Below are positions 1-23,084 of a stretch of DNA of 32,000 nucleotides, one piece after another. Source of the stretch: Candidatus Thorarchaeota archaeon (GTDB lineage Archaea; Asgardarchaeota; Heimdallarchaeia; Hodarchaeales; Hodarchaeaceae). The translations under genes and the position numbers were made by a program. Every line of letters starts with the position of its first letter. Within the stretch, counting starts at the first letter, position 1. The stretch is from assembly GCA_048882505.1 (NCBI GenBank), contig JBHLRO010000007.1, forward strand, positions 1 through 32,000. Reading direction: 5' to 3'. The notes beneath the pieces are model-generated. The model was given only the letters and a program-made list of their open reading frames with translations, did no database searches and had not been told where the DNA came from.

Positions 1-2
1 AA

Positions 3-248
3 TATGGTTTCCGCTAGTTCCGGAGAAAGGCCCAACCCAAAGCCAGATGTCCCTTGTAAATAGGCGACATTGAAGTACGCGATTATGAAGGCCAATATAA
101 CGGCATTAGCGGTCGAAAAAATACCAAGAGCGCAAACGTTTCGTATTTTTTGTCTGGTATTCCGTTTTTCTCGAAGTTCTTCGGTGGTTAAGAAATCGAA
201 CTGATCTTTCGTTGGAATTTCATGAGCAATTGTTTCTCTCGTTACCAA
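3..248 (-). CDS. 5' part of a membrane protein running off the left edge (TTG start; LVTRETIAHEIPTKDQFDFLTTEELREKRNTRQKIRNVCALGIFSTANAVILAFIIAYFNVAYL...)
   Basis: Manual translation of the minus strand: open frame from TTG at 248 to the window edge, with an in-frame TGA upstream and a hydrophobic TM-like stretch; divergent from smc. Not in the ORF track because it is truncated. Confidence 0.6.
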   Translation of the reverse strand, partial: MVTRETIAHEIPTKDQFDFLTTEELREKRNTRQKIRNVCALGIFSTANAVILAFIIAYFNVAYLQGTSGFGLGLSPELAETI

Positions 249-714
249 TCTCTTGGTTCACCCAATATTATCCACGACTGGGCTCTTTCGCTTATTACAT
301 TATCAACATATGGATTTCGTTGGTGACGCCTCCGACGATTAATATAGATTTCCAGTTCTGATTCATCCGATAGAGGACTTTTGCAACATAAAATCAGCTA
401 TAAAATCCATAGAATAAACTTGAACGTGCTATGGACTATAACACCTCTTGAATCGACCTTTTTTTAAGGGCTACTTCTTTATTTTTTTAATATATTCCCT
501 CTCCGACGGCTTCAACAGAAATTTTCCACCAAGCCTTCGTAGAATTGTGGAATGAACCTAAAAAGCAATCATTTCCTCCGGTGATCGGCGAAGAAAACTT
601 CAAAAGGGCCGAGTTAATATAGACATAATTAAAAACATGCGAACGATTGTGTTCGTAGATCCCTAAAGCAATATTCTTCCTCTAATCTTAGAATAATGCA
701 ATTTGCAAAGACCC

Positions 715-724
715 ATATATAAAA
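715..724 (+). promoter_or_regulatory. Possible archaeal TATA box for smc (ATATATAAAA)
   Basis: AT-rich TATA-like decamer ending about 46 bp upstream of the smc ATG; motif and position only. Confidence 0.3.
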
Positions 725-770
725 TACCTCATCAGACACAGGATACGCAGGAACACGAGGATTCAACACC

Positions 771-3700: not shown

Positions 3701-4376
3701 ATTTGAGGAGGAAAACACCCGCTTCATTGAACTTCTTGATCGGCGCGATATTCTGATCGAAGAACGTCAAGTCATTCTCGATTTTATTGAGGAGATCGAA
3801 ACAGAGAAATATTCCGTCTTCATGAAGGTCTTCCGATCAGTAAACAGGCACTTCGGACGGATTTTTAATGAACTTAGTGCCGGCGATGCCCGTCTTATAC
3901 TCGAAAAGGATCCCAAGAAGGGAGAGGACATCTTTGAAGGGGGTATTCTTATTGAAGCGCATCCCGCGGGTAAGAAGGTCGCCTCCCTCGAATCTATGTC
4001 CGGCGGTGAAAAGGCCTTGACTGCTCTCGCCTTTATTTTTGCGGTTCAAACCGTAGATGCGCAGCCCTTCTATATCCTGGACGAAATCGATGCCGCCCTC
4101 GACCCCATGAATGTCCGTCGCGTGGCCAAACTCCTCCATCGCATGTCCCGCCGCGTCGGCGGCACTGATGACGATGATGACGGGACAGCCGCCGCCTCTC
4201 ACCGCTCCCGCACCTCTAATGGCGCCTCTGCCCAATTCCTTGTCATCTCGCACCGGGACATCCTCATGGCGTGGGCTGATCGCTTGTATGGTTGTACAAA
4301 CGTCAAGGGTCTGTCCTCAGTGTTTTCGATCCAGATGTCGGAGGATAAACGGTTAGAACGGGATGCTGCGTTCTGA
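771..4376 (+). CDS. smc: Chromosome segregation protein SMC
   Basis: N-terminal Walker A (GPNGSGKSN), Q-loop (IIAQGQV), long coiled coils, hinge with G-x6-G-x3-GG (GDVFYSNGIINGG), PVNMKAL motif, signature (MSGGEK), Walker B/D-loop (YILDEIDAALD), H-loop (ISHR); 1201 aa. Confidence 0.97.
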   Translation: MVHIKEIKMTGWKSYGPSTVRMPLAKGFTCIVGPNGSGKSNSIDAVNFCLGLLSKKAMRADSMVNLLYNGIGGKKPSEKAIVDIVFDNSDYAIPVREPEIIVTRELKRNGTGTYRLNGKRTTRTDILDKLRIAGIDVINSYNIIAQGQVGEIVGMSPNQRRELMENLAGVGQFDEKKQASLKELDEANRRMDELQLLVNEVGRRVESLRKEKEDAERWQTLDTEIRDHRSLLISYGYHRSNQQILALDEEIGGFRNRQEELMNERTNIETKIEEANEKIRSLEDQLIRLETSVTEIRTTAEEKNIEKTKIGEKVEYNKKTINTNEKRVTKLQSRLEQINKQIEEDKTRKEELEEEKKNLVKEIEETQASRAQLDLEHEKKSQEYEEIKNEHEDCERRHRVENDRLTKTQVSFEVAQSMVDAFQNNVNEFERRQGQLEEQIKTAQEKTQELKSIIADDTTRLEEARSRIGDIEEKKVSLDALIESLDTQIRETNDSYLVQKAQIDTISSFLKTEAGKENPAVSFISDRKNNGDMPGVLGEFQNISGGDGAALPSEVGHLSDAIITDTVDHALNCIQLLKDNAVGAANFIPLERFKLSPTDKFSNIIKKVREQNEIVPDLQAAARAWKKSGSTVTTVDGDVFYSNGIINGGFHLASAQETVETLRAEMQTSQDQLQGLRTQLKEEKENQKKLLQLEKTISESIKKLEENIQNAEIQITQQENQVNLLRENQEQNQTEIAPLQKQLTEKSIERDEQKQQMTFFEENIVKISEELQEIQARLEAADTRPILEKINQVEQQLGKLQGKLGGVESRIEGIENQKEERDARITETNNEINTVQMETANLEGEIQVLEEQLAQIDSQLETILENEKQVNEEFKEVRSELNSQKKYHSTLIKDKEGVNEKFTKEEEKVTDLKLQRERLAVEVEKLQEEARDNDISFLPAEAEELRDVDDNKIGREISRKTEEKTRLEPVNMKALKEFEEENTRFIELLDRRDILIEERQVILDFIEEIETEKYSVFMKVFRSVNRHFGRIFNELSAGDARLILEKDPKKGEDIFEGGILIEAHPAGKKVASLESMSGGEKALTALAFIFAVQTVDAQPFYILDEIDAALDPMNVRRVAKLLHRMSRRVGGTDDDDDGTAAASHRSRTSNGASAQFLVISHRDILMAWADRLYGCTNVKGLSSVFSIQMSEDKRLERDAAF
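4293..4376 (+). repeat. smc 3'-end repeat, copy 0 (the functional gene end; putative attachment site)
   Basis: 84 bp TGTACAAACGTCAAG...GCTGCGTTCTGA, the last 28 codons of smc, reiterated downstream. Confidence 0.95.
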
Positions 4377-4654
4377 AATGGTAAAACGGGCTGGTTTTAT
4401 CAGATTTCAAAAGCCATTATTGCATTTGGTAAAGCAGCCATCCACCCGATGGGGAAAAATCTCCATGGAACGCAGGGGCGAGTGTTTGAGGTTGGGAAAT
4501 GCGAATCGACCAACTGAGAAGGAATTGATCAGAGATTTACGTTTGATGGCACCGATAGTCGAACCTGGTCTTGGTGGAGCTTATTAGTTTTGGAGTGAAG
4601 AAATCAGACTGACTGACCGAAATTATTTGAGAACTAGATAATTCTGTAATCCCT

Positions 4655-5317
4655 ATGGGAAAATCACCCAATTCACCGTCCACGAAAGTAGAAAAGGCAC
4701 TTTATTTAGCCAGCAGTTATACAGGTGAGGTCAAACCAGTCAATCTGGATAAAATGGATAAATCAGCGAAGTTGCATATTGAAAAGATCAAAGAATCTCA
4801 TGCTGAATCGGTCTTAGACTTCGGGTGCGGAGCTGGGGGGATCTTGTTAGCATTACAACAGGCAGGAATAAAGGAAATTCATGGTATTGATGCTTCTCCC
4901 GAAGCCATAGAGATGGTAAAAAAACGATTTGAGAAATTTGGGACTCTCGAAAATACATCATTTACTGCTGGTAACATAATCCAATTTGATCCCCCTATTG
5001 TCGAAGCGGTTTCCTCTCACTTTGTGCTTTGCTGTCATCCCGATGCAATGGGGATGGTCAATAAGGCAACAGAGAAACATCCAGAGATAGTCGTAATCAG
5101 TTTTCCGAAGGATAATTTACTCACTAAATCCGCTGCTACTTTTATAAATACCATGGTGTGGATCGTTAGCCGATTTATATCATCTCTTAGGGGGCTAGGA
5201 TGGTATGCCCATTCTACTACACTGATAAAGGCCAAATTTGAAGAAAATGGGTACCATCTGGTTTTTGCCAAAGAAAGCTTTATTTCGCAAACCCTGGTCT
5301 ATGAAAAAACGAAATGA
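4655..5317 (+). CDS. Class I SAM-dependent methyltransferase (BchM-like family)
   Basis: Motif I VLDFGCGAGG, acidic motif GIDAS, VLCCHPD resembling the BchM-like subfamily; sole gene of segment A. Confidence 0.85.
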   Translation: MGKSPNSPSTKVEKALYLASSYTGEVKPVNLDKMDKSAKLHIEKIKESHAESVLDFGCGAGGILLALQQAGIKEIHGIDASPEAIEMVKKRFEKFGTLENTSFTAGNIIQFDPPIVEAVSSHFVLCCHPDAMGMVNKATEKHPEIVVISFPKDNLLTKSAATFINTMVWIVSRFISSLRGLGWYAHSTTLIKAKFEENGYHLVFAKESFISQTLVYEKTK

Positions 5318-5660
5318 CGGAGTATAAGACGGCAATCCATCACCGAGAATATTCCTAAAAGGTATGATTTTCTCTTTTCTACTATCCTTTCTTAATACCC
5401 TCAAGCAGAATGTCAATTAAGAGTGATTCCTAAACATATAGAATACTCATCGAAAGATAGTGTAGAAGATTCTTGGATTTTTTCTTTTGGTGAACCGAAT
5501 TTTTGACTGATCAACCGGAACCCATCATTACGAGACTAATCCATTCCACCGTAATTGGGATTTTTGCGTTATCGGAAGAAATGGGAGTGAGAACGATCAG
5601 AAGTAATCTCTGAGGGATTATTTTATGAATGCTCTAGGAAATTATATGATACTTTTAGTG

Positions 5661-5744
5661 TGTACAAACGTCAAAGGACTGTCCTCAGTGTTTTCGATCC
5701 AGATGTCGGGAGACAAAAGGCTGGAACGAGAGGCTGCATTCTGA
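5661..5744 (+). repeat. smc 3'-end repeat, copy 1
   Basis: 73/84 identical to 4293-4376; translates CTNVKGLSSVFSIQMSGDKRLEREAAF*. Confidence 0.95.
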
Positions 5745-6151
5745 GGAAAGCCAAAGGACCAAGGCTAACGGTTTATTTTGATTATCTGTAACTAATTATT
5801 CTGACGCCGTAGGCGTTCAGGAAATTTCATCCTGACCGCGTGCTTTTATTACTGTATTAAACCCGTTTTGTTGTTCTTTGGCCAAGTTAATGAAGCTGGA
5901 TTTAGTCTTATTATGAACCAATGAAGGATCTTTTATATTTCGATAAGCAAGAAAACGATGAGTTCTCTCAGAACTAACACCTGTAATAACTAGCCCGCGT
6001 CTCCTGAACCCATACCTACCTCGTCTTCCTCTCTTGTTCTCCATTAGAGGGGAGTAACATTTATGGAGTCGATTGGATGCGAAATTAGGATTTGACGATG
6101 AGTAGTGACATCAACTAATCTTTCAAAGCTCATAGATGGGGAGGGACGTAA

Positions 6152-6859
6152 CTACTGCAATGAAAGGAACAGGATTATGAGGGCACCTACGCCCAGGGTT
6201 ATCAGGGCTAAAATCACTGTGATTTTATGTTCTACTAACAATGTTTTCAGCAGCTCTCGAGACATGGGCTCCATCCCTGCGGTTTTCATCACATTTTCAA
6301 GCTCGCTCTTCTCCTCGATCCTAGTGGGCTCTCTTCTACCTTTCGAGGGATCTATCAAGATAAGGGGATTATAATGAGTCCAGAGCATCCATCCGAACAG
6401 GATCGAGATTACAAAGGCCGAAATTTGGTCAAGAGAATAGATTGCTAAATCAGACAGCGGATAAATCCAGACTGGGGAGGTACGGGTCGGAAAGGGCGTG
6501 AAACTGAAGTCAACCACATCGTGAGACAGCCAGGCGAGGCTCACGGCGGCCAGCGTCCACGAAAGATCTTTGGCCCTATCGGGAAACCATTGAAAAATCA
6601 ACAGGAGGAAAATCACCGCTAAGACTGCGAAGAGAATAGGGAGGAGCAGGGAATGCCAAAACCCTCGGTGAGAGAAGAAGAATTGGAGCGTAGGACTCTC
6701 AGGAACCTGTACAAATTTAAGAATCCCATCAACATCAGGGAAGATGCCCGCAAATGCCCCGAGAACCAAAGTTTTCAGTCGATCTTTCTTGTCCCATCGA
6801 TAGAACGGGTAAGCGATCAGAAATCCCGCAAGGAAGTGAGTGGTATACCCAGGACTCAT
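6152..6859 (-). CDS. Membrane-bound metal-dependent hydrolase (YdjM-like)
   Basis: N-terminal His (THFLAG), GIFPDVD, HRGFWHSLL and SHDVVD motifs with several TM helices. Confidence 0.85.
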   Translation of the reverse strand: MSPGYTTHFLAGFLIAYPFYRWDKKDRLKTLVLGAFAGIFPDVDGILKFVQVPESPTLQFFFSHRGFWHSLLLPILFAVLAVIFLLLIFQWFPDRAKDLSWTLAAVSLAWLSHDVVDFSFTPFPTRTSPVWIYPLSDLAIYSLDQISAFVISILFGWMLWTHYNPLILIDPSKGRREPTRIEEKSELENVMKTAGMEPMSRELLKTLLVEHKITVILALITLGVGALIILFLSLQ

Positions 6860-7003
6860 CAGATAAGACTCCTTGTCTCACATTTTAATAAAAACACGAG
6901 TCAATTTCTCGCCATCCATTTACGATCTTCTGGCCAAGCTGATGACAATTTTGCCATATCACTTTCCTTTAGACCTCGTCAGTAACCCTTAATTCCCCAG
7001 TCA

Positions 7004-7492
7004 TTATTTTGGCCACGGAATTGGTCTTGGAGGCCGAAGTCGTCCAAATATGTCCGCCAGTCGCTCCTTCATCTCCTCCAGTTCTTTCATAGTACACATT
7101 ACGGCTTCCGCACCAGCTCCCCATGCTTCAAAACATTCCTCCTCCGATCGAGGCGGATCTTCGGCTTCACACTTTGCGAGAGCTGCAACATAGGATATTG
7201 TCGCTTCAAGACAAGGATCCTTCGCAAGTGAAACCTTCCCAAGAGGCGGGCAAGTCTCATCAATCACCTCTTTGAAATCGGTTAGAATTTCCTGGCTTAG
7301 GTTGGCTGTAGGTCGTCCTGCTAAGAAAATAACTCGCATCGAGTAGCCGAGCGTGACTATAGCCGCGATTTGCGTCTCATTTAGCTCTTTCAAGGGTTCT
7401 AATAAACTTCTTGACGCCTTGACAAACTCATCGAGCTCATTTGCAAGCTTCTGTCTTGCTTGCTTAAGTTCTTGTCTGGTGGTTTTTTCCAT
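7004..7492 (-). CDS. Hypothetical helical, Cys-containing protein (likely start MEKTTRQ at 7492; ORF track extends to 7573)
   Basis: 162-aa ORF with protein-like composition; ATG lies 2 nt after the stop of the upstream small ORF. Confidence 0.7.
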   Translation of the reverse strand: MEKTTRQELKQARQKLANELDEFVKASRSLLEPLKELNETQIAAIVTLGYSMRVIFLAGRPTANLSQEILTDFKEVIDETCPPLGKVSLAKDPCLEATISYVAALAKCEAEDPPRSEEECFEAWGAGAEAVMCTMKELEEMKERLADIFGRLRPPRPIPWPK

Positions 7493-7494
7493 TA

Positions 7495-7701
7495 TTACAC
7501 ATCCCCATCCTTTTCCTGATTTATCAAATCCGATTTTCTTAATCTGTTGTAGAGGAGATCTTGGAAGTTCCAACGGTAACTAAATTCTCTTGGATAAGCA
7601 TAGAGATTTGAAGATGATATATAAAAGGGTAAGGGGCAGCTTTTCACCATATTTTCAAGAAACATGGTGAATTTGCTTCCAACCACCTCTAGATCTGTCA
7701 T
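7495..7701 (-). CDS. Small hypothetical protein
   Basis: 68-aa ORF whose stop sits 2 nt before the next ATG (operon-like spacing); no recognisable motif. Confidence 0.35.
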   Translation of the reverse strand: MTDLEVVGSKFTMFLENMVKSCPLPFYISSSNLYAYPREFSYRWNFQDLLYNRLRKSDLINQEKDGDV

Positions 7702-8104
7702 TGATTCACTCTATCAATCCCCCATTTTTTCATCTTTTCCCACCTGCATGTCGAGATTCTCTACTAAGATAAATTCTTTCCCCTTTTCGATAAATCAAAC
7801 ATTTGAATGTTGTGGTCGAGTGATTGATATGTTCTTCTCCTTCAGTTAATCCTTCTTCAATCGATGGGAAGGATTAAAGGATTACAGGCGCGCTAAGGCA
7901 GAGATAACCAAGATATGGAGACTCTTCCTTTTCTCGTCTGTTGCTCCAAATGGCGAAAGCAGGCCCGATCGAAAAGAAGGATCATTGACTTTACGGCTCC
8001 TTTGGGGAAAATAGGGGGGATTGCACATTGGTTGTGGTATCATATATTTCGGGGCCAGTTTTCATACCAATTCATTGAGTTAATGTATACTGAGGTATCT
8101 TCAA

Positions 8105-8188
8105 AGTACAAACGTCAAAGGGCTGTCCTCGGTCTTTTCGATCCAGATGTCGGAGGATAAACGGCTGAAGCGGGATGCTGCGTTCTGA
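8105..8188 (+). repeat. smc 3'-end repeat, copy 2
   Basis: 75/84 identical to copy 0; translates STNVKGLSSVFSIQMSEDKRLKRDAAF*. Confidence 0.95.
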
Positions 8189-8323
8189 GAAAAAAAAATA
8201 CGTCATTCTGGAGCGTTCTACAAAGCTAGTTATTCCAGAAGAATCCCTTTGCGATAGTAACCCCTTATAGCTTTTTAAACTGATATAACCCATTCTCAGG
8301 GGTGAATTCCTTAGGGTAGGAAC

Positions 8324-9541
8324 ATGAAACGCTGGCAATCCATTATTGTTCCGATCTTTTCAGTTTTGGTTTTGGCACATATTCTATGGGATGGACAACA
8401 TTTCCTTCTGCCCATTGAACAGGAAGTTTTGGTTAGAGCCAATTTCAAGAGTCCTCCTGCTCCTAATGTCCCTGATCACATCTATACTCAACATGACCCT
8501 ATCAATATCATCGGTGACAACGATCTGAAAAATTCGTTTCCAGGCGGGGGGACGTTGAGTGACCCTATTCGGATTGAAGGGTTCAACATCACTGCAGCGG
8601 CTGAGGATTTGATTTCCATTAGCGGAACTTCGTCCTATTTCCGTATCGCAAATAACCTACTTAACGGTTATAGTGGGTTGGGTAATGGGATTTCTCTTTA
8701 TAATGTGGCAAACGGAGAAATCTGTAGCAATGTTATCTTTGGTAATAACCAAAACGGAATCAAACTATACGTTTCAAACAACAACAGTGTTCATAACAAT
8801 TTTCTATATAAAAATGGTTTTGCTGAAATAAATTTAGCCCGTTCTAGCAACAATAAGATCTCGGAAAACACCGTTTCAAAAAATAAATTTGCAGCGGGAA
8901 TATATTTTGTCAAGGATAATTTTGACAACGTTATCTCGAATAACACATTATTTAATAACGGCATTGGAATCAGATTCGAGTCAGAAGCAAACAGAAACGT
9001 AGTAATACAGAATTACTTGTATGAGAATAGAGTAGGAGTCCATCTAGAGTTTGTTAGGGATATTTCAGTTAGACAGAACACCATTAGAGATAATCTGGCA
9101 GGAATAAAAGTTACCAGCGGGGATGGATTTAGTTTTTCACGAAATATAACCATATCTAGAAATCTTATTTTTCATAATCAAGGATATGGTATGATTTTGG
9201 AACAATTTTCCAAAGATATCCTGATTTTAGGTAACAATTTTATCAAGAATAACCAGAATAAGAACTCTCAAGCATTTGATGGCGGGGAGAATAATACATT
9301 TGCCTATAATTACTGGAATGAGTGGACGAAACCCGATTATAATCAGGATGGCTTTGTAGATCTTCCTTACAATATTGACGGATCAACAAATAATCAGGAT
9401 GGTTTCTCTTGGGCTTCCCCTCCATTTCATAATACTGAGATCCCCCTGGATCACACTATCGCCGCTTCTATTCTCTTAGTTTTGATTCTTGGTACGCTAG
9501 GATTCTCGATACTTCTACAGCAACGTCGGTCACATGGGTAG
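8324..9541 (+). CDS. Secreted/membrane-anchored right-handed beta-helix protein (NosD-like repeats)
   Basis: N-terminal signal-like helix, HDPINIIGD...GTLSDPIRIEG leader, many Asn-rich I-x-x-N-x-(I/L)-x-x-N...GI repeats, N-x-W-N closing motif, C-terminal TM followed by basic residues. Confidence 0.85.
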   Translation: MKRWQSIIVPIFSVLVLAHILWDGQHFLLPIEQEVLVRANFKSPPAPNVPDHIYTQHDPINIIGDNDLKNSFPGGGTLSDPIRIEGFNITAAAEDLISISGTSSYFRIANNLLNGYSGLGNGISLYNVANGEICSNVIFGNNQNGIKLYVSNNNSVHNNFLYKNGFAEINLARSSNNKISENTVSKNKFAAGIYFVKDNFDNVISNNTLFNNGIGIRFESEANRNVVIQNYLYENRVGVHLEFVRDISVRQNTIRDNLAGIKVTSGDGFSFSRNITISRNLIFHNQGYGMILEQFSKDILILGNNFIKNNQNKNSQAFDGGENNTFAYNYWNEWTKPDYNQDGFVDLPYNIDGSTNNQDGFSWASPPFHNTEIPLDHTIAASILLVLILGTLGFSILLQQRRSHG

Positions 9542-9568
9542 AACCGAGTAATAATGAAAGATCTTTAA

Positions 9569-9652
9569 TGTACAAACGTCAAGGGCCTGTCTTCAGTGTT
9601 TTCCATCCAGATGTCGGAGGATAAACGGCTGGAGCAGGATGCTGCGTTCTAA
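9569..9652 (+). repeat. smc 3'-end repeat, copy 3
   Basis: 76/84 identical to copy 0; translates CTNVKGLSSVFSIQMSEDKRLEQDAAF* with stop changed TGA to TAA. Confidence 0.95.
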
Positions 9653-10141
9653 AAACGCTGAAAAAGATAAGGAGAAGAGTTATTTTCGAATTTGAGTTAA
9701 AGAGATCTGGAATATCGTGGAGGAAGTCCGAATGGGATGGGCGGAGACGGGATGCGGGATATTGAATACCCAGATTGGCATAAATCCTTTATCAGCGGTT
9801 AGAAGCACGTGATACGGAGCCTCGTATTTTGTGAAGCCATCGAAACCGTATTTCCAAAGGTAAACCTGTTTGGTCTTTTACAATTTCATCTTTTTCATTT
9901 AAATCGGTACTCATTGCGATCTTTCCATAACCTACAATTTTTAATGCAGTAAAAATATTTTCAACCATGTACTAAGAACATGGGATTAAAGCCGGGATAC
10001 AAAGAACGAAAAAGCCACGTCCTCCCCTAATCTGATACATACTATCAGAAAACCTCGGTAATGATAACCTGGGGTTTTGAAGCTTGAATACCTTTATCGT
10101 GGTATTAAAAGAATATCAAGACAACTGAAGGGTACCGTACA

Positions 10142-11317
10142 TTGCCAATATTTACATCTGAAGTAACCTGGGCTATCGTGATACGATTAGTAGTCTTGGT
10201 AGGCGAACTTGCATTAATATACATCGTTGCACGGAAGTACTTGAGATCAGACTATTCTCGGATTTTAATCATTCTGTTATTAGCGTTAATTGCCAATCTT
10301 GTTTCCAATGGGTTAAGTTTTAGCGCCTTATTTATTTCCGAAGCAGACCAAAGTTTATTCCATTACATAGAGACCTTGGATTTTTTGAGTATTATTCTCT
10401 CGCTTTACTTTTTTCTCTTAATCTTTGAATATTTTGAATACGAAACCCTACTTACTCAACAACAGCTGATTGGAACCGTTTTAACAACCGTTACAACTAT
10501 CTTTATCCTTTATGCGATGCCCCAAGAAAACTGGTTAATCAATGAACAGTTGTATTTCCAAAGCCTTGATTCTCCCATTCTGGTTTTCTTAAACCTATTC
10601 GGTGCTATATTAGGGGTTTTTATGATAAGAACTCTACGTAGAGGTTTGAAGGACGTCTGGATTACTCAGAGAGAACAAATAATTACAATGATTGTAAGTG
10701 TTTGTATAATTTCGTTCATTCCGTCCCTGTTTTCATTATTAGTACTCTTTTCCGCTGACCAAGTTTCCTTAATTGTGGAACCATTAGTAAGAGGAGCAAT
10801 ACTAATAGGTTATATAATTTTGGCAATTTCCTTTGGTAAAACAAATCATTACAGCCAATATAATCGACGAAAAGCAGATAAGGTCCTTGTAACAAACCTA
10901 AGTGGGATCCCGCTTTTTCATTATGATTTTAAAGAAAATGTTCATTACATAAATGAAACGCTATTTTCCGGAGCTGTAGTAGCAATCACTATGCTAATGT
11001 CAGAATCCATTAAGTCTCCATCTCCGATTGCAGAGGTATTGATGAAGAACAAATATCGGTTAATGTTAGAAACACATGCATCCTTTATTGCCTTAGTTCT
11101 GACGCCACAAGCTAATTCCTACCTTAGAGATTCGATAGAACGATTTGCGCTAGCTTTTGATCAAAAATTTTCTTCAATCATAACTTCAGGAGAGGTTTTA
11201 GACCTTAATCTTTTCGTTAAATCGGGGCTTGGAGTATTGTTTGAAAATTTCGGAATATCTACTGCCAACGTCAAGGAAATAGCAGCAGTTTTAACGTTTG
11301 AAGAGGTAATAACGTAA
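10142..11317 (+). CDS. Multi-pass (about 7 TM) membrane protein with C-terminal longin-like domain
   Basis: About 7 hydrophobic helices in the first ~230 aa, then KVLVTNLSGIPLFHYDF...LFSGAVVAITMLMSE...FALAFDQKF, a longin-like pattern; TTG start. Confidence 0.7.
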   Translation: MPIFTSEVTWAIVIRLVVLVGELALIYIVARKYLRSDYSRILIILLLALIANLVSNGLSFSALFISEADQSLFHYIETLDFLSIILSLYFFLLIFEYFEYETLLTQQQLIGTVLTTVTTIFILYAMPQENWLINEQLYFQSLDSPILVFLNLFGAILGVFMIRTLRRGLKDVWITQREQIITMIVSVCIISFIPSLFSLLVLFSADQVSLIVEPLVRGAILIGYIILAISFGKTNHYSQYNRRKADKVLVTNLSGIPLFHYDFKENVHYINETLFSGAVVAITMLMSESIKSPSPIAEVLMKNKYRLMLETHASFIALVLTPQANSYLRDSIERFALAFDQKFSSIITSGEVLDLNLFVKSGLGVLFENFGISTANVKEIAAVLTFEEVIT

Positions 11318-11385
11318 GATACCATGTCTTGGTATATAACACCAGTATGATTCGAGCTAATTTTAGAGTAAACGGACCGAGCCAG

Positions 11386-12228
11386 ATGAAAAAGATTAAC
11401 TCAAATATTATATATGGTACTGCCTGGAAAGAAGAAAAAACCGAGCCATTAACCTTAAATGCACTTATGGCAGGATTTAACTCAATCGATACTGCTAATC
11501 AACGTAAACACTATAACGAAGAAGGGGTGGGGAACGGCATACGTACTTTTATAAGAGCAACAGGAACAACCCGAGATGAATTATTTATTCAAACGAAATT
11601 TACCTACAAAGAAGGTCAAGATCACCGTTTGCCTTTTGACCCTAACGCTGACCCAGCGACCCAAGTTAAACAGTCGTTTTATAGTTCATTAGAACATCTC
11701 CAAATCGATTATATTGACTCATACCTGTTACATGGGCCCTCAACACGTTTTGGAATATCTGAGCTTGATTGGGGGGTCTGGACAACGATGGAGGAATTAA
11801 TCTCGGAAGGAAAAGTTAACCATTTAGGTATTAGCAATGTTAATGCTGAACAACTGAAGATTTTATTTGAAAAGATAGGGATTAAACCGTCTTTTGTCCA
11901 AAATCGTTGCTTTGCGAGACTTGGATGGGACAATAAAGTTCGTGAAATATGCAAAAACAATAATATCATTTATCAAGGATTCTCGTTACTAACCGCCAAT
12001 CGAGAGGTATTAACCCATCCTAGATTAGTACAAATGAGTAAAACAATAAATAAAACAATTCCGCAGATAATTTTTAGTTTTGCTCGACAAATTGGCATTT
12101 TACCCTTAACAGGAACAACTAATCGGAAACATATGGAAGAAGACCTCGAAAGCGTGAATATAACGCTTACAAAAGAACAGGTTGATAGTCTTACAAACGT
12201 TTCAATTGAAAGATCCCTTGATTATTGA
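11386..12228 (+). CDS. Aldo/keto reductase (likely start MKKINS at 11386; ORF track starts at 11329)
   Basis: YGTAW, IDTA-x4-Y, ELFIQTK, SLEHLQIDYIDSYLLHGP, LGISN, ILPLTGTTN motifs. Confidence 0.9.
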   Translation: MKKINSNIIYGTAWKEEKTEPLTLNALMAGFNSIDTANQRKHYNEEGVGNGIRTFIRATGTTRDELFIQTKFTYKEGQDHRLPFDPNADPATQVKQSFYSSLEHLQIDYIDSYLLHGPSTRFGISELDWGVWTTMEELISEGKVNHLGISNVNAEQLKILFEKIGIKPSFVQNRCFARLGWDNKVREICKNNNIIYQGFSLLTANREVLTHPRLVQMSKTINKTIPQIIFSFARQIGILPLTGTTNRKHMEEDLESVNITLTKEQVDSLTNVSIERSLDY

Positions 12229-12263
12229 AAATACCCCTTCTTCCCAGAATTTGGTATCTAGTA

Positions 12264-12347
12264 ATAACAAGCATCAAAGGTTTATCTTCTGTCTCTTCGA
12301 TCCAAATGGCGGAGAATCATTGCTGGGAAAGAGATGCTGTCTTCTGA
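12264..12347 (+). repeat. smc 3'-end repeat, copy 4 (decayed, full length)
   Basis: About 59/84 identical without gaps; translates ITSIKGLSSVSSIQMAENHCWERDAVF*. Confidence 0.85.
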
Positions 12348-12456
12348 GGAAAGCTAAAGAGCCAAGCAAATGAGCAAGAAGAAATGAAAGTCAAACGAGG
12401 CAGTTCAAGGAGATTCGAAGAATATTATAGTCCGTAGGGCTATTTTGCTACAAGGA

Positions 12457-12930
12457 TTATCCTTTTCTCAATATTACTTCTACGATCTCTTTGCCTCGTG
12501 CATTAGCATAATACTTATCGTACCCGATAACGGAAAAACCACACTTCTCTAGAACTCTTATCGATCTACTGTTATCTTTAGCTGCCCGCGCGTAAATAGG
12601 ACGAACTTCCACTTCATCCAGGAATAATTGAACTGCTTGACCTGCAATTCCTCTTCCCCAGTAGTCTCTATCAATCCAGTAAGTTATCTCAGGACGATCA
12701 AAAAGGACAAATTTTGCTACGTGACCTATAATGCTCCCTTCGTAATAAATAGTTCTAGCAATTATGTCCTTATCGGACAACAAACGATTCCAATGGTTAT
12801 CAAATGATTTTCTATTTGAAGGGTCTTCAGGAATAAACGCAGCCATATACTGGGCTTTTTTATCCTGCATATGTTGGAAAAAAAAGTCCAGATCGGAGGT
12901 TTTTACCTTCTTTAGTCTTATTTCAACCAA
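12457..12930 (-). CDS. GNAT N-acetyltransferase, RimJ/RimL family
   Basis: EITYWIDRDYWGRGIA acetyl-CoA motif and N-x-x-SIRVLEKCGF. Confidence 0.9.
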   Translation of the reverse strand: MVEIRLKKVKTSDLDFFFQHMQDKKAQYMAAFIPEDPSNRKSFDNHWNRLLSDKDIIARTIYYEGSIIGHVAKFVLFDRPEITYWIDRDYWGRGIAGQAVQLFLDEVEVRPIYARAAKDNSRSIRVLEKCGFSVIGYDKYYANARGKEIVEVILRKG

Positions 12931-13254
12931 GATAGATCCTTATCCTGTCTATTAACTTATTTCCTAATCGTTGTAGGAGAATGAAAAAATGTAATAGTAG
13001 CTTTGTCTTGTTCAGCTACACCTTTTCGAACAATGGATACTCTCTTGCTACTATTATTGATGATTCTAGGGCTAGAGTTCACCCCTTAACGTTGGCAGAT
13101 ACCCTTTTTGACAAAAGATAGTTTGAAGATCGTAGTATGAACGGTTGGAGAGGGATATTACATTCTGATAGGCTTCAGAGGCATAAAAAACTGTTATTTT
13201 TGAGCTTAAGTTAAGGTGAATCCCAATTTACAATCGAGCACATAGATCGCCGAA

Positions 13255-14184
13255 TTAAGGTTGAAAATCCTCATGATTTATTCCGCAACGAACCCCCTGG
13301 TTTTCTATTTGATAGGCGTAAGCCATACGAGGGGTATTAAACGCCAATCCAATTGCAGCAGAGGTTAAGACAATTATGCCCCCCAATCCTTTTACTTTAA
13401 GATCCAAATCATGGACTGTTAGACTAGCGGCCTCTTGGGCTGAGGAGCCAGCTTTGATGTATTGAATGCATTTATTTGTTGCCAAGATTCGGATTAAATC
13501 TTCGCCGTACCCCGTTGCTGCAGCCCCACCAATCCCCTTTTCCACGTACGCGCCAGAGCCCCATAAAGGAGTATCGCCAACACGACCAGCTCGTTTGTAC
13601 GGAGTACCTCCAGTCGACACTGCCACGCAGAAACTCCCAGCTTGATCAAGGCAGACACAGCCTACTGTTCCGTGGCGATCTGGTCTCCCTTTGTTTCTAA
13701 AGGCATCTTTAGGTTGATAATGCTTCTTCTCTTTAATCGAATGGTATCTCTCTAACTCTCGCCCAATCAAAAGATCTTGAGGTTGAACCTCAGGAACACC
13801 CATTTCTTGCGCGAAAAGATTAGCTCCTTTCCCTACGAGCATTATATGATCAGTTTTTTCCATTACAAGGCGAGCCACCTTGACAGGGTTAGTAACATTC
13901 TGAATTGCAGCGACAGAGCCGATCTTATAATCATCTGTCGCAATAATGGCATCCATTTCTACTTCAGCAATTTGGTTGACAAATGATCCTTTACCTGCGT
14001 CAAAGGTTGGATTTTTTTCCATTAGCGTGATGGCGTGTTCTGCAGCATCGAGAGCAATCCCATCTCCATCCTCCAAAATTTCACTTGCCTCAACGCATGC
14101 CCTTCTAACTCCCTTTACATGGGCATCAACAAGATTCTCTGGAATATTCCACGCACCTCCGTGGATAATTACACCATACCTCAT
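13255..14184 (-). CDS. iaaA: Isoaspartyl peptidase / L-asparaginase (Ntn-hydrolase)
   Basis: IIHGGAW, FDAGKGS, EMDA, autocleavage site HG|TVGCV, STGG, GRVGDTP, TGYGE motifs. Confidence 0.9.
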   Translation of the reverse strand: MRYGVIIHGGAWNIPENLVDAHVKGVRRACVEASEILEDGDGIALDAAEHAITLMEKNPTFDAGKGSFVNQIAEVEMDAIIATDDYKIGSVAAIQNVTNPVKVARLVMEKTDHIMLVGKGANLFAQEMGVPEVQPQDLLIGRELERYHSIKEKKHYQPKDAFRNKGRPDRHGTVGCVCLDQAGSFCVAVSTGGTPYKRAGRVGDTPLWGSGAYVEKGIGGAAATGYGEDLIRILATNKCIQYIKAGSSAQEAASLTVHDLDLKVKGLGGIIVLTSAAIGLAFNTPRMAYAYQIENQGVRCGINHEDFQP

Positions 14185-14221
14185 TCAATACACTTCTTTG
14201 ATATTCGAAAATTAGGGTCTT

Positions 14222-14269
14222 GATCAGATTTCAGTGAATCAGAGGCTGGAAGGGGGCGTATCCTTCTGA
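14222..14269 (+). repeat. smc 3'-end repeat, copy 5 (3'-half remnant)
   Basis: About 32/49 identical to 4328-4376 with one gap; ends TTCTGA; shares AGGCTGGAA with copy 1; intergenic. Confidence 0.55.
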
Positions 14270-14307
14270 GAAGAAAAGGAGAAGTCACAAGATGGAGAAC
14301 CCCCCAG

Positions 14308-15432
14308 TTAGATTTCCGTGAAGCTGTCAACTGTCTCTTGGTCCAATCTTTTTAGGATTTCAATTATCAGGGTGATTGCCTTATTAACATCAGCTAGATC
14401 TAAGATCCCGTTGTGGGAATGAATATGGCGTGTGGGAACTCCCAATACTATCGATGGACACCCTGACCCCGTTATGTGGATTATTCCTGCATCAGTTCCT
14501 CCACCCATCACGACTGAAGCTTGATAGTCAATCCCTATTTCTTTCGCAACATCGATAATAAAATGACGTAATCGAGGGTTCGGAATCATTGTCGCATCTC
14601 CTGCAAGTATAGATACCCCTTTTGACATCTCAGCGGGAGCTTTCAATTTTTCGACCCCCGGAACATCACTGGAAATATCCACTTCTAAGGCAACTCCTAA
14701 ATCGGGATTTATGGTCTGAGCTGCTGTTCGTGCCCCCCGTAGTCCTACTTCTTCTTGGACAGTTGCTACCCCAAATATCTGATTCGGGTGTGAAACATTT
14801 CCTTCCTTAATTTTCCTTACTACTTCTGCTGCGATAAATGCTCCGATTCTGTCATCAAATGCTTTTCCAACTGCCAAAGTTGTTTTTCTCTCTTTTTCTT
14901 TGCCGTTATTATCTTTCTCAATCTGAATTCGTTCCAATAGTTCAAATTTGGAATCAGGTGTAATCGGATCACCTATTTGAATTCCAAGATTCTCAATTTC
15001 CTTTTTACTTTTACAACCTACATCGATGAACATTTTTTCTTTTGTAACAACTTTTTTCCTTGTTTCAGGATCAAGAACATGGGGAGGAGGGGCAGTAATT
15101 ATTCCACGGTAGGTTTTTCCATTCCTGTTTCGAACTAACACCCTTTGCGTGAGTAAGGATTGGTCCCACCATCCTCCTATTTGATGAAAGGTCAGATATC
15201 CCAGATCGTTTATTCCTGTCACCAACATTCCTATTTCATCTATATGGCCCGCAAGCATAATTTTGGGACCTGTGTTCCCAATTTTAAAAATCAAGGAACC
15301 TGTTTTATCTTTGAATACTTCATCGGAAAATTTACTGACATATTCCTTGATAATTCTTGATACTTCAATTTCATGCCCTGGAGGTCCAAATGCGTTACTC
15401 AACTTCTCTAAAAAAGGTATTTCAATGTCCAT
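14308..15432 (-). CDS. M42 family metallo-aminopeptidase (TET/FrvX-like)
   Basis: LAGHIDEIG, GKAFDDRIG, QEEVGLRGA, GGTDAG, RHIHSH motifs. Confidence 0.93.
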   Translation of the reverse strand: MDIEIPFLEKLSNAFGPPGHEIEVSRIIKEYVSKFSDEVFKDKTGSLIFKIGNTGPKIMLAGHIDEIGMLVTGINDLGYLTFHQIGGWWDQSLLTQRVLVRNRNGKTYRGIITAPPPHVLDPETRKKVVTKEKMFIDVGCKSKKEIENLGIQIGDPITPDSKFELLERIQIEKDNNGKEKERKTTLAVGKAFDDRIGAFIAAEVVRKIKEGNVSHPNQIFGVATVQEEVGLRGARTAAQTINPDLGVALEVDISSDVPGVEKLKAPAEMSKGVSILAGDATMIPNPRLRHFIIDVAKEIGIDYQASVVMGGGTDAGIIHITGSGCPSIVLGVPTRHIHSHNGILDLADVNKAITLIIEILKRLDQETVDSFTEI

Positions 15433-15674
15433 CTGATTCTTTCTCCATTTTACGGATTCTATTTAGAATGTAAGTTGGTGAAAGGTGTAAAAGAAAAAGA
15501 TTGTGATGGGGTGAGATCACCAAATTATTACTTGATCTGGTCTCTCTACGGAAAGGGAAATCGGACAAATTAATTCTGCTGCACCTTGCCGGCCAAACGT
15601 AAACAAACAAACCTCAGCCAAAATTCCATAAAGTAATAAATGCCTCCGCCGACGATATGCAGGGTTAGTAGATC

Positions 15675-16178
15675 ATGTCACCAAGTCCGACAAGCGACAA
15701 TGAAATATTAATGCATGAAAGGGTGGTCATAAAGCGTCGCCAGCTTTGGAAAAAACTGAAGGGTCCTGATTTTCAACCTGAATGGTTTATGACCAGGATT
15801 AAACCGCATATGTGGGCTATCGATGAAATTTATCGCCATATGCTTGGCTCTGAGATTTTTTATATTCATAGCAAATTTGGAGAAAGAAGGATTCGTGATG
15901 AATGGGCCGTAGGAGCCCAATGGGTTGGAGACAGGCACTTTGGCTTTAAAGAGAAGAGACATTATTCGAGAGAAGAGCTTTTTGAACTAACTGGGCCGGT
16001 GGAACAGAAATCACGGGATTGTCTCCAGGATTTGACAGAGAACGACCTCGGCACCCCTGTAATGGCTCCTTGGGGGGAAGAAATGACCTTTAGAGAGATA
16101 ATTCATCATTGTTTTGAACATGAACATCAGCATCGAGGCCAAATCCAATACCTCATTACGTATTTTAAACAACTTTAG
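15675..16178 (+). CDS. DinB-like family protein
   Basis: Upstream His (YRHM) and C-terminal HCFEHEHQHRGQI metal-binding motif. Confidence 0.8.
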   Translation: MSPSPTSDNEILMHERVVIKRRQLWKKLKGPDFQPEWFMTRIKPHMWAIDEIYRHMLGSEIFYIHSKFGERRIRDEWAVGAQWVGDRHFGFKEKRHYSREELFELTGPVEQKSRDCLQDLTENDLGTPVMAPWGEEMTFREIIHHCFEHEHQHRGQIQYLITYFKQL

Positions 16179-16294
16179 TGCCTTCGCGATACTTCATGCA
16201 AAATCCTTGGAATCCAGAACTATGATTCTCCACCATCATTAAAGGATTGTAATCTGTCATTTCCATTCGGATGTAGGAGGATCAAGCAAAAATG

Positions 16295-17371
16295 TTATCC
16301 TACGATTTTTCCGTGCATCATGATTTTAGTAGGAGGTTTTCTTATTATTTCTATATTCTTTCTGGGATCTTCTAGGAAGAATATTAAGTTTGCATCTGAT
16401 CCTTCCTCAATACCGTTTTCACCCAAGTAATTTCTTGGTATAGTTGTCGCAGTGGCTATAGCATCTTCAACGGAGAGCCCAAATTCATACATTTTAAGAA
16501 TTTCGTTTCCCACTGATCCGTGCGGAAGCATGTCCGTACCAGCCAAAAGAGTCAGATGATCGTTTGCCAAAGGAATAAGGTTTTTCATGTTATCGAGGAT
16601 AAAAGGAATTTGTTTATCCATTCCAGTATAATTTTTTAACAAATTGATAATCGAAAGAGTGGGAGTCCAAGCAATGCCTTTTTGTGCCATCTGATCCAAT
16701 TGGTTCTTCGATAAGTTGAACCCGTGCTCTAAAGTGTCTACTCCAGAATTTATAGCGAGTCGAACACCTTCCTTATTGGTTACGTGAACACCTACTCTAC
16801 CACCTGTTTTTTGAACTGCTTTCACTGTCTGGTGAACGTTTTCTTCAGCGAAATTTAATTGAGAATTTGAGAAATCTCCTCCCTTAGGAAAGTCAATAAT
16901 AATTTTTACCCATTGGAATCCGTCTTTTACCTGATTCACTGCCCTTTTCTCTAGGTTTTCACCCTTAACTGGATCAATGAAATCAAAATAGCCATATTTC
17001 GGGGCGAGGAATGACCCCGCTGAATGGACAATTGGTAGTCCATCATTTCGTGCGAGATTAAGTGTGCTAGATTCATTCACAGTTCCAATATCTCTTAATA
17101 ATAGCGTTCCTGATTCCAGGTGAGCTCTTCTATTTGCTTGCACCAATTCCTTACTTGCTGGATTTAGGTTAAAGTTATTGAAATCGATTGTTAGATGAAC
17201 ATGGGCATCCACAAGACCTGGTGCCACAAAAACGGGTTTTTCAAACAATAAAGGAGCATCCTGCTCTTCTTCAAACGTAATCTTGTTATTTACAACCCAA
17301 AACTCTGTGATTTCGTCATCGAAGGGAAGTTCATATGCTTTAATTCGAAAACCGTTGGATTCGCTTTTCAC
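16295..17371 (-). CDS. Amidohydrolase family protein
   Basis: PGLVDAHVHL (HxH), WVKI, VGVH, DTLEHG, AGTD, GIEEGSDANL motifs. Confidence 0.9.
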   Translation of the reverse strand: MKSESNGFRIKAYELPFDDEITEFWVVNNKITFEEEQDAPLLFEKPVFVAPGLVDAHVHLTIDFNNFNLNPASKELVQANRRAHLESGTLLLRDIGTVNESSTLNLARNDGLPIVHSAGSFLAPKYGYFDFIDPVKGENLEKRAVNQVKDGFQWVKIIIDFPKGGDFSNSQLNFAEENVHQTVKAVQKTGGRVGVHVTNKEGVRLAINSGVDTLEHGFNLSKNQLDQMAQKGIAWTPTLSIINLLKNYTGMDKQIPFILDNMKNLIPLANDHLTLLAGTDMLPHGSVGNEILKMYEFGLSVEDAIATATTIPRNYLGENGIEEGSDANLIFFLEDPRKNIEIIRKPPTKIMMHGKIVG

Positions 17372-17735
17372 CGCGACCTACAAACCCCTAATCAGCTAAT
17401 GAAGCACAATACACCTCAAGTTCCCTTGGCAGATTAGATTCCTGGATACTGAGGTATACATAAAATCATGCGATTCCCTCAGCTTTCTCCTATAGAAAGC
17501 CCCTCAGGCGATTATCGGAAAAAACCACTCTTCTCGAAAAAGAGCAGTTTTATTCCTTTTTCCCTATACTTCTGCGACTTAGATTTTTCGCCATTAGAGG
17601 GTCTTTCTCCTTGATAAACACCTCTGGAAGAGCGTTTGGTTCTAGCTAGGCTTGTAGAATATATCTTAGATGCCCAAAAACAGCCAAATCGAAAAACCTT
17701 GGCTAGTAAGTAAGAAGGGGTTCCATTGCGAGCCC

Positions 17736-17790
17736 TATGGCTGCCCAGACGTCAAATGCTTGTTCTTGTGTTTCCATCCCGATATCGGTG
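17736..17790 (+). repeat. smc 3'-end repeat, copy 6 (5'-part remnant)
   Basis: About 41/57 identical to smc 4287-4343 with two 1-nt gaps (TATGGCTGCCCAGACGTCAAATGCTTG...); intergenic. Confidence 0.65.
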
Positions 17791-22912: not shown

Positions 22913-23084
22913 CTTTGCAGATTTAGATGTGATTGATTTTATATGAATATGGAATACGGCAATCGGCATTGAGAATCAAAAAAGGATTAGGTCCATATTC
23001 AATGAATGGATTTATCAAAACTGATCCTCCGATCGAGTTACGTTCTTTTTCGTTATTCTCATCAACAAAACAAGGTGCATCATC

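Follow-up and report, generated by a model that had tools for sequence, protein, structure and literature searches.

The window analysed here is the first 32 kb (32,000 nucleotides) of contig C7 of G000, a 4.3-Mb metagenome-assembled genome of a Hodarchaeales-type Asgard archaeon that is 94.5% complete. Directly behind its smc gene lies an array of short gene cassettes, and the direct repeats that bound every cassette are made of the 3' end of smc itself. The repeat comprises the last 84 nt of the gene, 27 codons and the stop, and nine copies are present (the working end, four well preserved and four decayed), all in direct orientation and each ending in a stop codon or the remnant of one. Very probably, the array was built by tandem accretion of units that each supplied smc with a replacement end. 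Small, probably circular pieces of DNA from related lineages, each with one to three ordinary genes and a copy of the smc end, would have recombined successively with the resident end by Campbell-type single crossover. Each event would give smc a new working end while pushing the previous end, with everything behind it, downstream, so that the youngest units would adjoin smc and the oldest, most decayed copies would lie farthest away.

The smc end and its copies

A repeat search of the window returned a family of direct repeats at 4275-4379, 5643-5747, 8087-8191, 9551-9655 and 12246-12350, within which the 84-nt copies, once placed in register, end at 4376, 5744, 8188, 9652 and 12347. The well-kept copies can be read in the smc frame into the 27-residue smc-end peptide followed by a stop codon. 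Decayed copies were scored by local alignment against a null distribution of 400 random windows, of which the 99th percentile is 33. The gene and its copies are as follows.

771-4376, + strand: smc, 1201 aa; Pfam SMC_N (9e-44) and SMC hinge; the last 84 nt are the functional repeat copy
4293-4376, + strand: repeat copy 1, the working smc end, CTNVKGLSSVFSIQMSEDKRLERDAAF then stop; starts at the palindromic hexamer TGTACA
5661-5744, + strand: repeat copy 2, 87% identity to the smc end; synonymous in 7 of 9 changed codons
8105-8188, + strand: repeat copy 3, ~90% identity to the smc end; synonymous in 5 of 7 changed codons
9569-9652, + strand: repeat copy 4, ~90% identity to the smc end; synonymous in 6 of 7 changed codons; the stop is TAA
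12264-12347, + strand: repeat copy 5, 70% identity to the smc end, decaying; frame and stop codon retained
13121-13168, + strand: repeat copy 6, decayed; right-hand part, gapped; local alignment score 40
14214-14269, + strand: repeat copy 7, decayed; score 32
16221-16304, + strand: repeat copy 8, decayed; score 46; similarity to smc begins ~6 nt further upstream (TATG..)
17736-17788, + strand: repeat copy 9, decayed; score 46; left part only, ending after ..GATATCGG

The original prediction, made from the letters of the window, had placed direct 84-bp copies of the smc end at 5661-5744, 8105-8188, 9569-9652 and 12264-12347, and these coordinates are confirmed. It had also listed two partial copies, of which 17736-17790 is real and slightly shorter, and 14222-14269 is real but so decayed that its score falls just below the 99th percentile of the null; copies 6 and 8 are additional finds. 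All copies were said to be intergenic, and this holds for credible genes, the only overlaps coming from short, probably spurious open reading frames (ORFs). The 84-mer was found nowhere else in the 4.3-Mb assembly, and neither the array nor the rest of the genome holds further fragments of an SMC gene.

The array is not an assembly artefact, which the first reading of the window had also called unlikely, because contigs from an independent study (run X2) bridge four of its junctions at an identity of at least 99%: smc to unit 1, unit 2 to unit 3, unit 4 to unit 5 and the copy at 14214-14269. Moreover, every copy has its own sequence, and five of the units recur with their flanking copies in a second genome. 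The loose ends of public-run contigs, at 8106/8225, 10062 and 14297/14336, reveal alternative flanks at repeat borders only. In the contigs of the four public runs, neither joints that skip a unit nor circular ones were seen. That the assembly is metagenomic, that the contigs of several relatives end past smc and that Logan contigs break inside the repeats are the points that could speak for an artefact of assembly or binning, which is left with practically no chance.

Two features of the surrounding DNA may be mentioned here. The 3' quarter of smc has a G+C content of 0.51 (1-kb window, 3501-4500), as compared to 0.41 in the rest of the gene and of the genome. The start of contig C7 (window 1-845) adjoins the end of contig C12 (110683-114384): the related genome G016 runs through both contigs, which overlap by 77 nt. 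That C7 breaks off 770 nt upstream of smc is therefore owed to the assembly and does not mark the border of an element.

Copies as former working gene ends

The strongest indication of how the repeats arose comes from the way in which they differ. Across the six well-kept copies of the window and of G016 (Ca. Heimdallarchaeota TM2S.58, JBHLSH010000023.1), a relative that also carries an array of this kind, is ~90% complete and has ~90% nucleotide identity, the variable columns number 7 at codon position 1, 4 at position 2 and 19 at position 3 (chi-square p = 0.002). Synonymous changes account for 32 of the 41 changed codons, against an unconstrained expectation of 23.5% (p = 3e-13) and an expectation of ~38% for copies that were duplicated in place and then decayed (p = 2e-7). 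Even a G016 copy with differences at 20 of its 84 nt is synonymous in 14 of 18 changed codons. Because the changes are mostly synonymous, each copy was in all likelihood being translated as a working end while it diverged: either a functional smc end arrived with the incoming DNA, or the copy had been the end of smc until it was displaced. Because the copies appear to have been working gene ends, the repeats were probably imported with DNA that supplied replacement ends, and would not be target duplications made in place.

Codon usage at one residue points in the same direction. The repeat motif occurs once, within smc, in 18 of 20 other genomes of the genus searched besides G016, the 18 being those with a match. 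The serine of ..IQMSE.. is encoded by AGT or AGC in all of these, and by TCG or TCA in G000, in G016 and in their well-kept extra copies. This switch is unreachable by single synonymous steps.

Units, cargo and growth at the smc end

Between the copies lie eight units of 0.77-2.6 kb each, smaller than the 1.3-3.5 kb first given for them. They are compact: their genes are intact, and non-coding DNA takes up only 0.3-0.7 kb. Their cargo consists of ordinary genes with no backbone gene recurring from one unit to another. Cargo lies on the minus strand in units 2, 5, 6 and 8 and in part of unit 7.

4377-5660, + strand: unit 1, 74-aa ORF and class I S-adenosylmethionine methyltransferase (4655-5317; Pfam); missing from the G016 array (blastn)
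5745-8104, - strand: unit 2, 75-aa ORF, YdjM-like membrane protein (6152-6859) and unfamilied 189-aa protein (7004-7573); missing from the G016 array
8189-9568, + strand: unit 3, NosD/beta-helix protein (8324-9541); common to G016
9653-12263, + strand: unit 4, 391-aa membrane protein (10142-11317) and aldo/keto reductase (11329-12228); common to G016 from 10062 on
12348-13120, - strand: unit 5, GNAT acetyltransferase (12457-12930); G016 has DUF4440 and M32 carboxypeptidase instead
13169-14213, - strand: unit 6, asparaginase-family protein (13255-14184); common to G016
14270-16220, both strands: unit 7, M42 aminopeptidase (14308-15432, -) and DinB-family protein (15675-16178, +); common to G016
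16305-17735, - strand: unit 8, amidohydrolase (16295-17371), its called end overlapping decayed copy 8 by 10 nt; common to G016

Among the other species representatives, extra copies of the repeat were found in G016 only. Contigs C23, C97 and C40 of that genome together form a single array of at least eight units, and units 3, 4, 6, 7 and 8 are common to both genomes. Next to smc, however, where the window has units 1 and 2, G016 carries two others, one DUF5615/PIN-like and one encoding an 831-aa NosD protein and a TPR protein, and the DUF4440 and M32 peptidase genes stand where the window has its GNAT unit. G016 additionally holds a unit with a 99-aa protein, a unit with a 230-aa gene and 1.1 kb more directly after the point that corresponds to copy 9. 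On either side the two genomes are collinear with few indels (9 kb downstream, 17 kb upstream). Because the distal units are shared with G016 while the smc-proximal units differ, the array appears to grow at its smc end. Copy decay, for its part, broadly increases with distance from smc, and such a gradient, together with the turnover, is what successive insertion at the functional end predicts. The original prediction had looked to the content downstream of smc to vary across relatives, and it is indeed not fixed. More distant members of the genus have no synteny downstream of smc in common with the window, and the contigs of several relatives end shortly past the gene.

An event nested within the array was found by comparing G016 (C97; L003:8600-9760) with window positions 14230-14400. 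There, a unit has been inserted at the 3' end of the M42 gene of unit 7, so that the site is occupied in G016 and empty in the window. The inserted unit holds the 230-aa gene mentioned above, which is methyltransferase-like, between ~77-nt duplicates that take in the end of the M42 gene and some neighbouring DNA. Next to either duplicate there is a decayed copy of the smc end; of the two duplicates, the distal one agrees with the window, and the proximal has diverged further.

Beyond the last recognisable copy, G016 has further insertions of 0.7-1.1 kb between window positions 17788 and 19031, and because of them the variable zone reaches past that copy. A beta-lactamase-family gene at 21704-22969 of the window matches two places in G016 (C40:9153-12444), with 72% and 69% identity.

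The unfamilied cassette proteins (74, 75, 189 and 391 aa, among others) have no match in Pfam, NCBIfam or PHROGs. The 391-aa protein of unit 4 was considered as a recombinase and rejected, since by eye it is a multi-pass membrane protein. Database homologues of the 189-aa protein of unit 2 measure 160-216 aa. In relatives, homologues of the unit 1 and unit 2 proteins occur in varied contexts away from smc, the unfamilied protein of unit 2 having different neighbours in each of three contigs inspected, and no donor element was found around them. In one contig (JGI Ga0315289_10015305), a nitroreductase gene that adjoins a homologue of the same unit 2 protein is placed between two ~90-nt intergenic repeats (L227:3948-4054, 4853-4938; 93% and 88% identical in the two stretches reported).

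The same scar on other genes

The scar is not confined to smc. A self-comparison of G000 found the 3' end of a gene repeated 1-10 kb downstream at ten loci, as opposed to two loci with a repeated 5' end. Each of the nine loci besides smc bears the scar on a different sequence, and the cargo is mostly a single gene. Targets include tfb, a Hel308-like helicase, two aldehyde dehydrogenases, an MFS transporter and a HerA-like gene. The tfb locus (C11:48978-59696; L203:1979-12697) is a second multi-copy array of the smc type, with three downstream copies that end at 51407, 57844 and 59696. Its repeated unit also takes in ~140 nt past the stop, with a terminator-like hairpin and a T-run, and its cassettes encode a P-type heavy-metal ATPase, an AhpC-like protein and several unfamilied proteins.

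Single-gene units are exemplified by the MFS locus (C6:96793-98886; L198), with a NosD/beta-helix gene, and by the Hel308-like locus (C2:117968-119932; L207), with a gene for a PMT_2-like membrane protein; both are flanked by a 60-nt gene-end duplicate. An aldehyde dehydrogenase locus (C2:361747-363650; L208) has a 1.9-kb unit flanked by a 104-nt gene-end duplicate and encoding a 550-aa protein with several helix-turn-helix and LAGLIDADG homing-endonuclease domains. For this locus, homing-type break and repair is a real alternative mechanism. G016 has an empty site at no fewer than three of these loci, namely MFS, Hel308-like and one aldehyde dehydrogenase. Where the target is the MFS, Hel308-like or M42 gene, the distal copy together with its flank agrees with the relative whose site is empty, and divergence is greater in the tail of the proximal copy; at the aldehyde dehydrogenase locus, both copies are about equally diverged. 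The two MFS copies share 36 identical nt and then differ at 6 positions in 24 nt, and the shared block would look like the identity block of an att site.

No duplicates of tRNA 3' ends were found downstream among the tRNAs of G000, of which ARAGORN called only 19. A beta-helix protein with internal repeats accounts for a repeat family on contig C4 (184.6-186 kb), which was set aside as unrelated. A gene-end scar of the kind seen in G000 was met in Heimdallarchaeota LC_3 (GCA_001940645.1, MDVS01000139.1), in which a 466-aa gene has its final 300 nt repeated 4.9 kb downstream with 85% identity; the two repeats (L217:7169-7468 and 12038-12337) bracket ABC-transporter and MFS genes.

Where the crossover lies

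The left border of the repeat is abrupt. Copies 2-4 have an identity to smc of 0.1-0.2 across the 40 nt that precede the repeat and of 0.97 across nt 1-10, and all well-kept copies of both genomes have this sharp edge at TGTACA in common. In the left half of the repeat, third positions make up 8 of the 11 variable columns. Because the coding signature thus covers the left half too, it must regularly have been the full 84 nt that took over as the working end. Taken together, the sharp edge and the left-half signature would favour a fixed crossover site at the left edge. Of the degenerate third positions, 1 of 8 varies within nt 1-10 and 31-50, as compared to 12 of 18 in the rest of the repeat (the most diverged copy left out), a constancy that is suggestive only, as the blocks were chosen after seeing the data.

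An inverted-repeat scan of four copies yielded arms of 6-10 nt and no long hairpin, and in relatives lacking the array the core segment has no DNA-level conservation beyond coding need. Xer-dependent modules (IMEX, pdif modules) are bounded by dif-like sites, with 11-nt arms and a 6-nt spacer, that match the host dif; the nearest arrangement in the smc repeat is a dyad around the conserved core with a 7-nt spacer, which is not significant by itself.

A proposed site-specific recombinase acting in trans

These borders suggest a second layer to the accretion described above. The crossover would most likely be site-specific, at or next to the palindromic left edge TGTACAAACG, with the recombinase supplied in trans, and the units would then act like cis-mobilizable elements (CIMEs) or integron cassettes and not as self-sufficient elements. 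An integrase encoded on an unbinned plasmid or virus is one candidate for the enzyme, a lineage-peculiar variant of XerA another. Homologous recombination between existing arrays would shuffle units as well. The two layers together, accretion and a trans-acting site-specific recombinase, are proposed tentatively, at somewhat less than an even chance.

A considerable body of observations weighs against that proposal. Searched against Pfam, NCBIfam and PHROGs, the ORFs of both arrays gave no match to a recombinase, a transposase or a protein of replication, in keeping with the original remark that no unit encodes a recombinase. None was found upstream of smc either, where the 17 kb of G016 encode MFS, Ras-like GTPase, glycosyltransferase and similar proteins. 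A whole-genome search of G000 for PF00589 returned only its XerA orthologue, on another contig (NF040815, 255 bits), G016 likewise has XerA only, and G000 contains neither a serine recombinase nor a Y1 transposase. A specific 26-nt pattern of the repeat has no match in the viral contig collection and leads in the genome contig collection to G016 only. Furthermore, the cargo consists of genes native to the lineage without an element backbone, and ten loci whose repeats are unrelated in sequence would call for more than one specificity, indeed several. The best dyad around the conserved core (11-7-11, with 7-8 of 11 matches) is not significant alone. Finally, similarity between the window and G016 breaks inside orthologous copies near nt 30, 18 and 49, and homologous exchange between arrays would give such scattered breakpoints.

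The XerA orthologues of G000 (C5:210883-212124; L001:850-2091) and G016 (C16; L211) are 413-418 aa long. They have a ~25-aa N-terminal extension and, between the core-binding and catalytic domains, an 86-aa insertion that begins with a degenerate repeat of the ..RD..ILYLL.. motif and has no Pfam match. Elsewhere in the genus, where 19 of 20 genomes searched have an orthologue, the open frames measure 288-335 aa. The long variant and the array occur in the same two genomes, which belong to one clade and hence are not independent evidence. Further PF00589 integrases, from one to seven per genome, are present in other members of the genus as compared to none in G000 and G016. Because both are incomplete metagenome-assembled genomes, extrachromosomal elements may be missing from them, and an extrachromosomal or unbinned element with the cognate integrase may have been missed.

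Other routes to an enzyme were equally unproductive. A degenerate 19-nt pattern, run against metagenome and viral contigs, was too loose, and no fetched match encodes an smc end. Within 10 kb of second-type integrases in four genomes of the genus, no convincing flanking gene-end repeats were seen. Split integrases of the SSV type were rejected, as no long ORF crosses any internal copy and the units are too small. G000 has a single, ordinary Cas1.

Competing explanations

Much of what speaks against a dedicated enzyme can be turned into a case for homologous recombination alone. According to this explanation, a founding duplication would be followed by recombination between adjacent copies, which loops out circles of a cassette with one copy, by the transfer of these circles to related cells and by their RadA-dependent insertion at the smc end or at any copy. 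Two genomes without a recombinase, one genome with the same scar on ten unrelated sequences, cargo of ordinary lineage genes and breakpoints spread within the repeat would all be expected from it. So would the tfb repeat, which runs on past the stop through a terminator-like hairpin, and the diverged proximal M42 copy of G016, which appears to carry a diverged homologue of the downstream flank too. The sharp left edge fits poorly, with nt 1-10 the best conserved part of the repeat, as random crossovers would seldom make the left end functional, and 84 nt (36-60 nt at other loci) at 85-90% identity are a poor substrate. It also leaves unexplained how new cassettes acquire a copy and must ascribe to selection the preference for 3' over 5' ends, ten loci to two. 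On this balance, homologous recombination as the sole process is somewhat unlikely. The opposite extreme is a graveyard of classical integrative elements, in which each unit arrived with an integrase specific for the smc 3' end and later deletions left only cargo. Tandem accretion with a replacement end is indeed the standard outcome for such elements, CIMEs are defined as their decayed derivatives (PMC7563491), and other genus members do have additional integrases. Yet no integrase fragment was found in the eight units of the window or the at least eight of G016, XerA being the only PF00589 protein of the genome. The units are compact, with intact genes and no recurring backbone gene, and no element with both the 84-mer and an integrase turned up in the genome and viral collections searched. 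We regard this history as improbable.

In-place origins of the repeats fare worse. Insertion with long target duplication, a process known from restriction-modification genes, would have duplicated the resident smc end without a recombinase, the copies diverging afterwards, and its footprint is similar, with non-mobility genes between long direct repeats that overlap a gene 3' end (PMC2853133). Neutral decay cannot readily account for a synonymous share about twice the predicted one, which persists even in the G016 copy with 20 differences, nor for the differences between the MFS copies, which all cluster in the last 24 nt with none in the first 36. This origin is disfavoured as very improbable, and target duplication of the casposon or transposon type was rejected, given diverged copies of 84 nt. 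Successive insertion with replacement ends, the core of the original prediction, is thus borne out by the synonymous signature, by the serine recoding in the array clade and by the turnover next to smc. Its count of at least six integrations is fair, with multi-unit imports and exchange between arrays by homologous recombination as alternatives to one event per unit. The notion of a dedicated smc-targeted system is not supported, since nine further loci bear the same scar on other sequences and no defining recombinase was found.

Significance

Asgard archaea have large genomes rich in acquired genes, and few mobile elements have been described from them. In a 2024 survey, aloposons were the only non-viral integrated Asgard elements reported until then (PMC11529989). 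The literature search returned no paper on an smc-targeted element and none on such arrays in Asgard archaea. The smc array and its sibling scars show that, behind conserved genes, single genes come and go at defined sites with no visible mobility gene, and this turnover is measurable between genomes that are only ~10% apart. If one enzyme is responsible, the closest relatives of eukaryotes would possess a novel gene-capture system; if homologous recombination is enough, a short duplication of a gene end would turn ordinary genes into mobile cassettes. Either mechanism could be tested on the concrete att-like substrates and strain pairs that the locus offers. More speculatively, archaea of the Hodarchaeales type, or perhaps all Asgard archaea, might run a trans-acting cassette exchange that uses the 3' ends of conserved genes (smc, tfb, hel308-like and others) as attachment sites, with mini-cassettes that lack a recombinase and carry the matching gene-end copy moving from lineage to lineage. 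We consider this rather unlikely; if true, cassette exchange through an enzyme not recognised as an integrase, for which the XerA variant is a candidate, would be an integron analogue of independent origin.

Comparison with known systems

Several known systems share part of this anatomy. The C-terminal displacement arrays of polymorphic toxins (Rhs, CdiA orphans), in which a variable C-terminal domain and its cognate immunity gene follow the repeated segment, differ in that the smc repeat is the extreme, invariant C-terminus ending at the stop and the cargo consists of unrelated enzymes. The e14 element and phage 21 integrate into the 3' end of icd. In a similar manner, SGI1 enters the 3' end of trmE and brings a replacement end (PMC8409611). 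As in the smc array, these elements provide an alternative 3' end with largely synonymous differences, and the displaced end remains as a pseudo-copy. They encode their own integrase, however, measure tens of kb, and have not been described in deep stacks of mini-units. Insertions with long target duplication bring in non-mobility genes between direct repeats of 30 bp to more than 400 bp, often over a gene 3' end and without a recombinase (PMC2853133). There the target is the source of both repeats, which hardly differ from the empty site, whereas one copy of each smc pair would be imported. The tycheposon islands of Prochlorococcus are hypervariable and combine repeated integration at one site with partial copies of the target 3' end and cargo-only segments (bioRxiv 10.1101/2020.12.28.424599). 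Their targets are tRNA genes and, unlike the smc array, intact tyrosine-recombinase elements are present in the same populations.

The resemblance to an integron that was originally proposed holds in outline. The array is an ordered series of one- to three-gene cassettes with one site each, growing at one end, with the recombinase outside the cassettes; toxin-antitoxin-like cassettes occur in both, here as unit a of G016. In contrast to an integron, no intI lies beside the first site (the window has no PF00589 match), the sites are the end of a coding gene instead of a hairpin-forming attC, the first of them lies within an essential gene, and the cassettes occupy both strands without a common promoter. 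Integrons themselves are reportedly present in archaea, in metagenome-assembled genomes studied by Ghaly et al. in 2022.

In streptococci, integrative and conjugative elements (ICEs) as well as integrative and mobilizable ones (IMEs) accumulate in tandem with CIMEs at the 3' ends of fda, rpsI, rpmG and rplL (PMC7563491). The streptococcal CIMEs are, like the smc units, cargo-only (1-13 kb) and stacked in tandem between att repeats from the 3' end of a housekeeping gene, and their metabolic and stress genes are of the kind found here. They differ in that they adjoin, and are mobilised by, an ICE or IME with an integrase for the same att site, a partner that the smc array has in neither genome. 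The smc stack is eight units deep compared to two or three in streptococci, in an Asgard host with no sign of conjugation genes. Judged by anatomy, streptococcal tandem accretion (PMC7563491) would be the closest known counterpart of the smc array.

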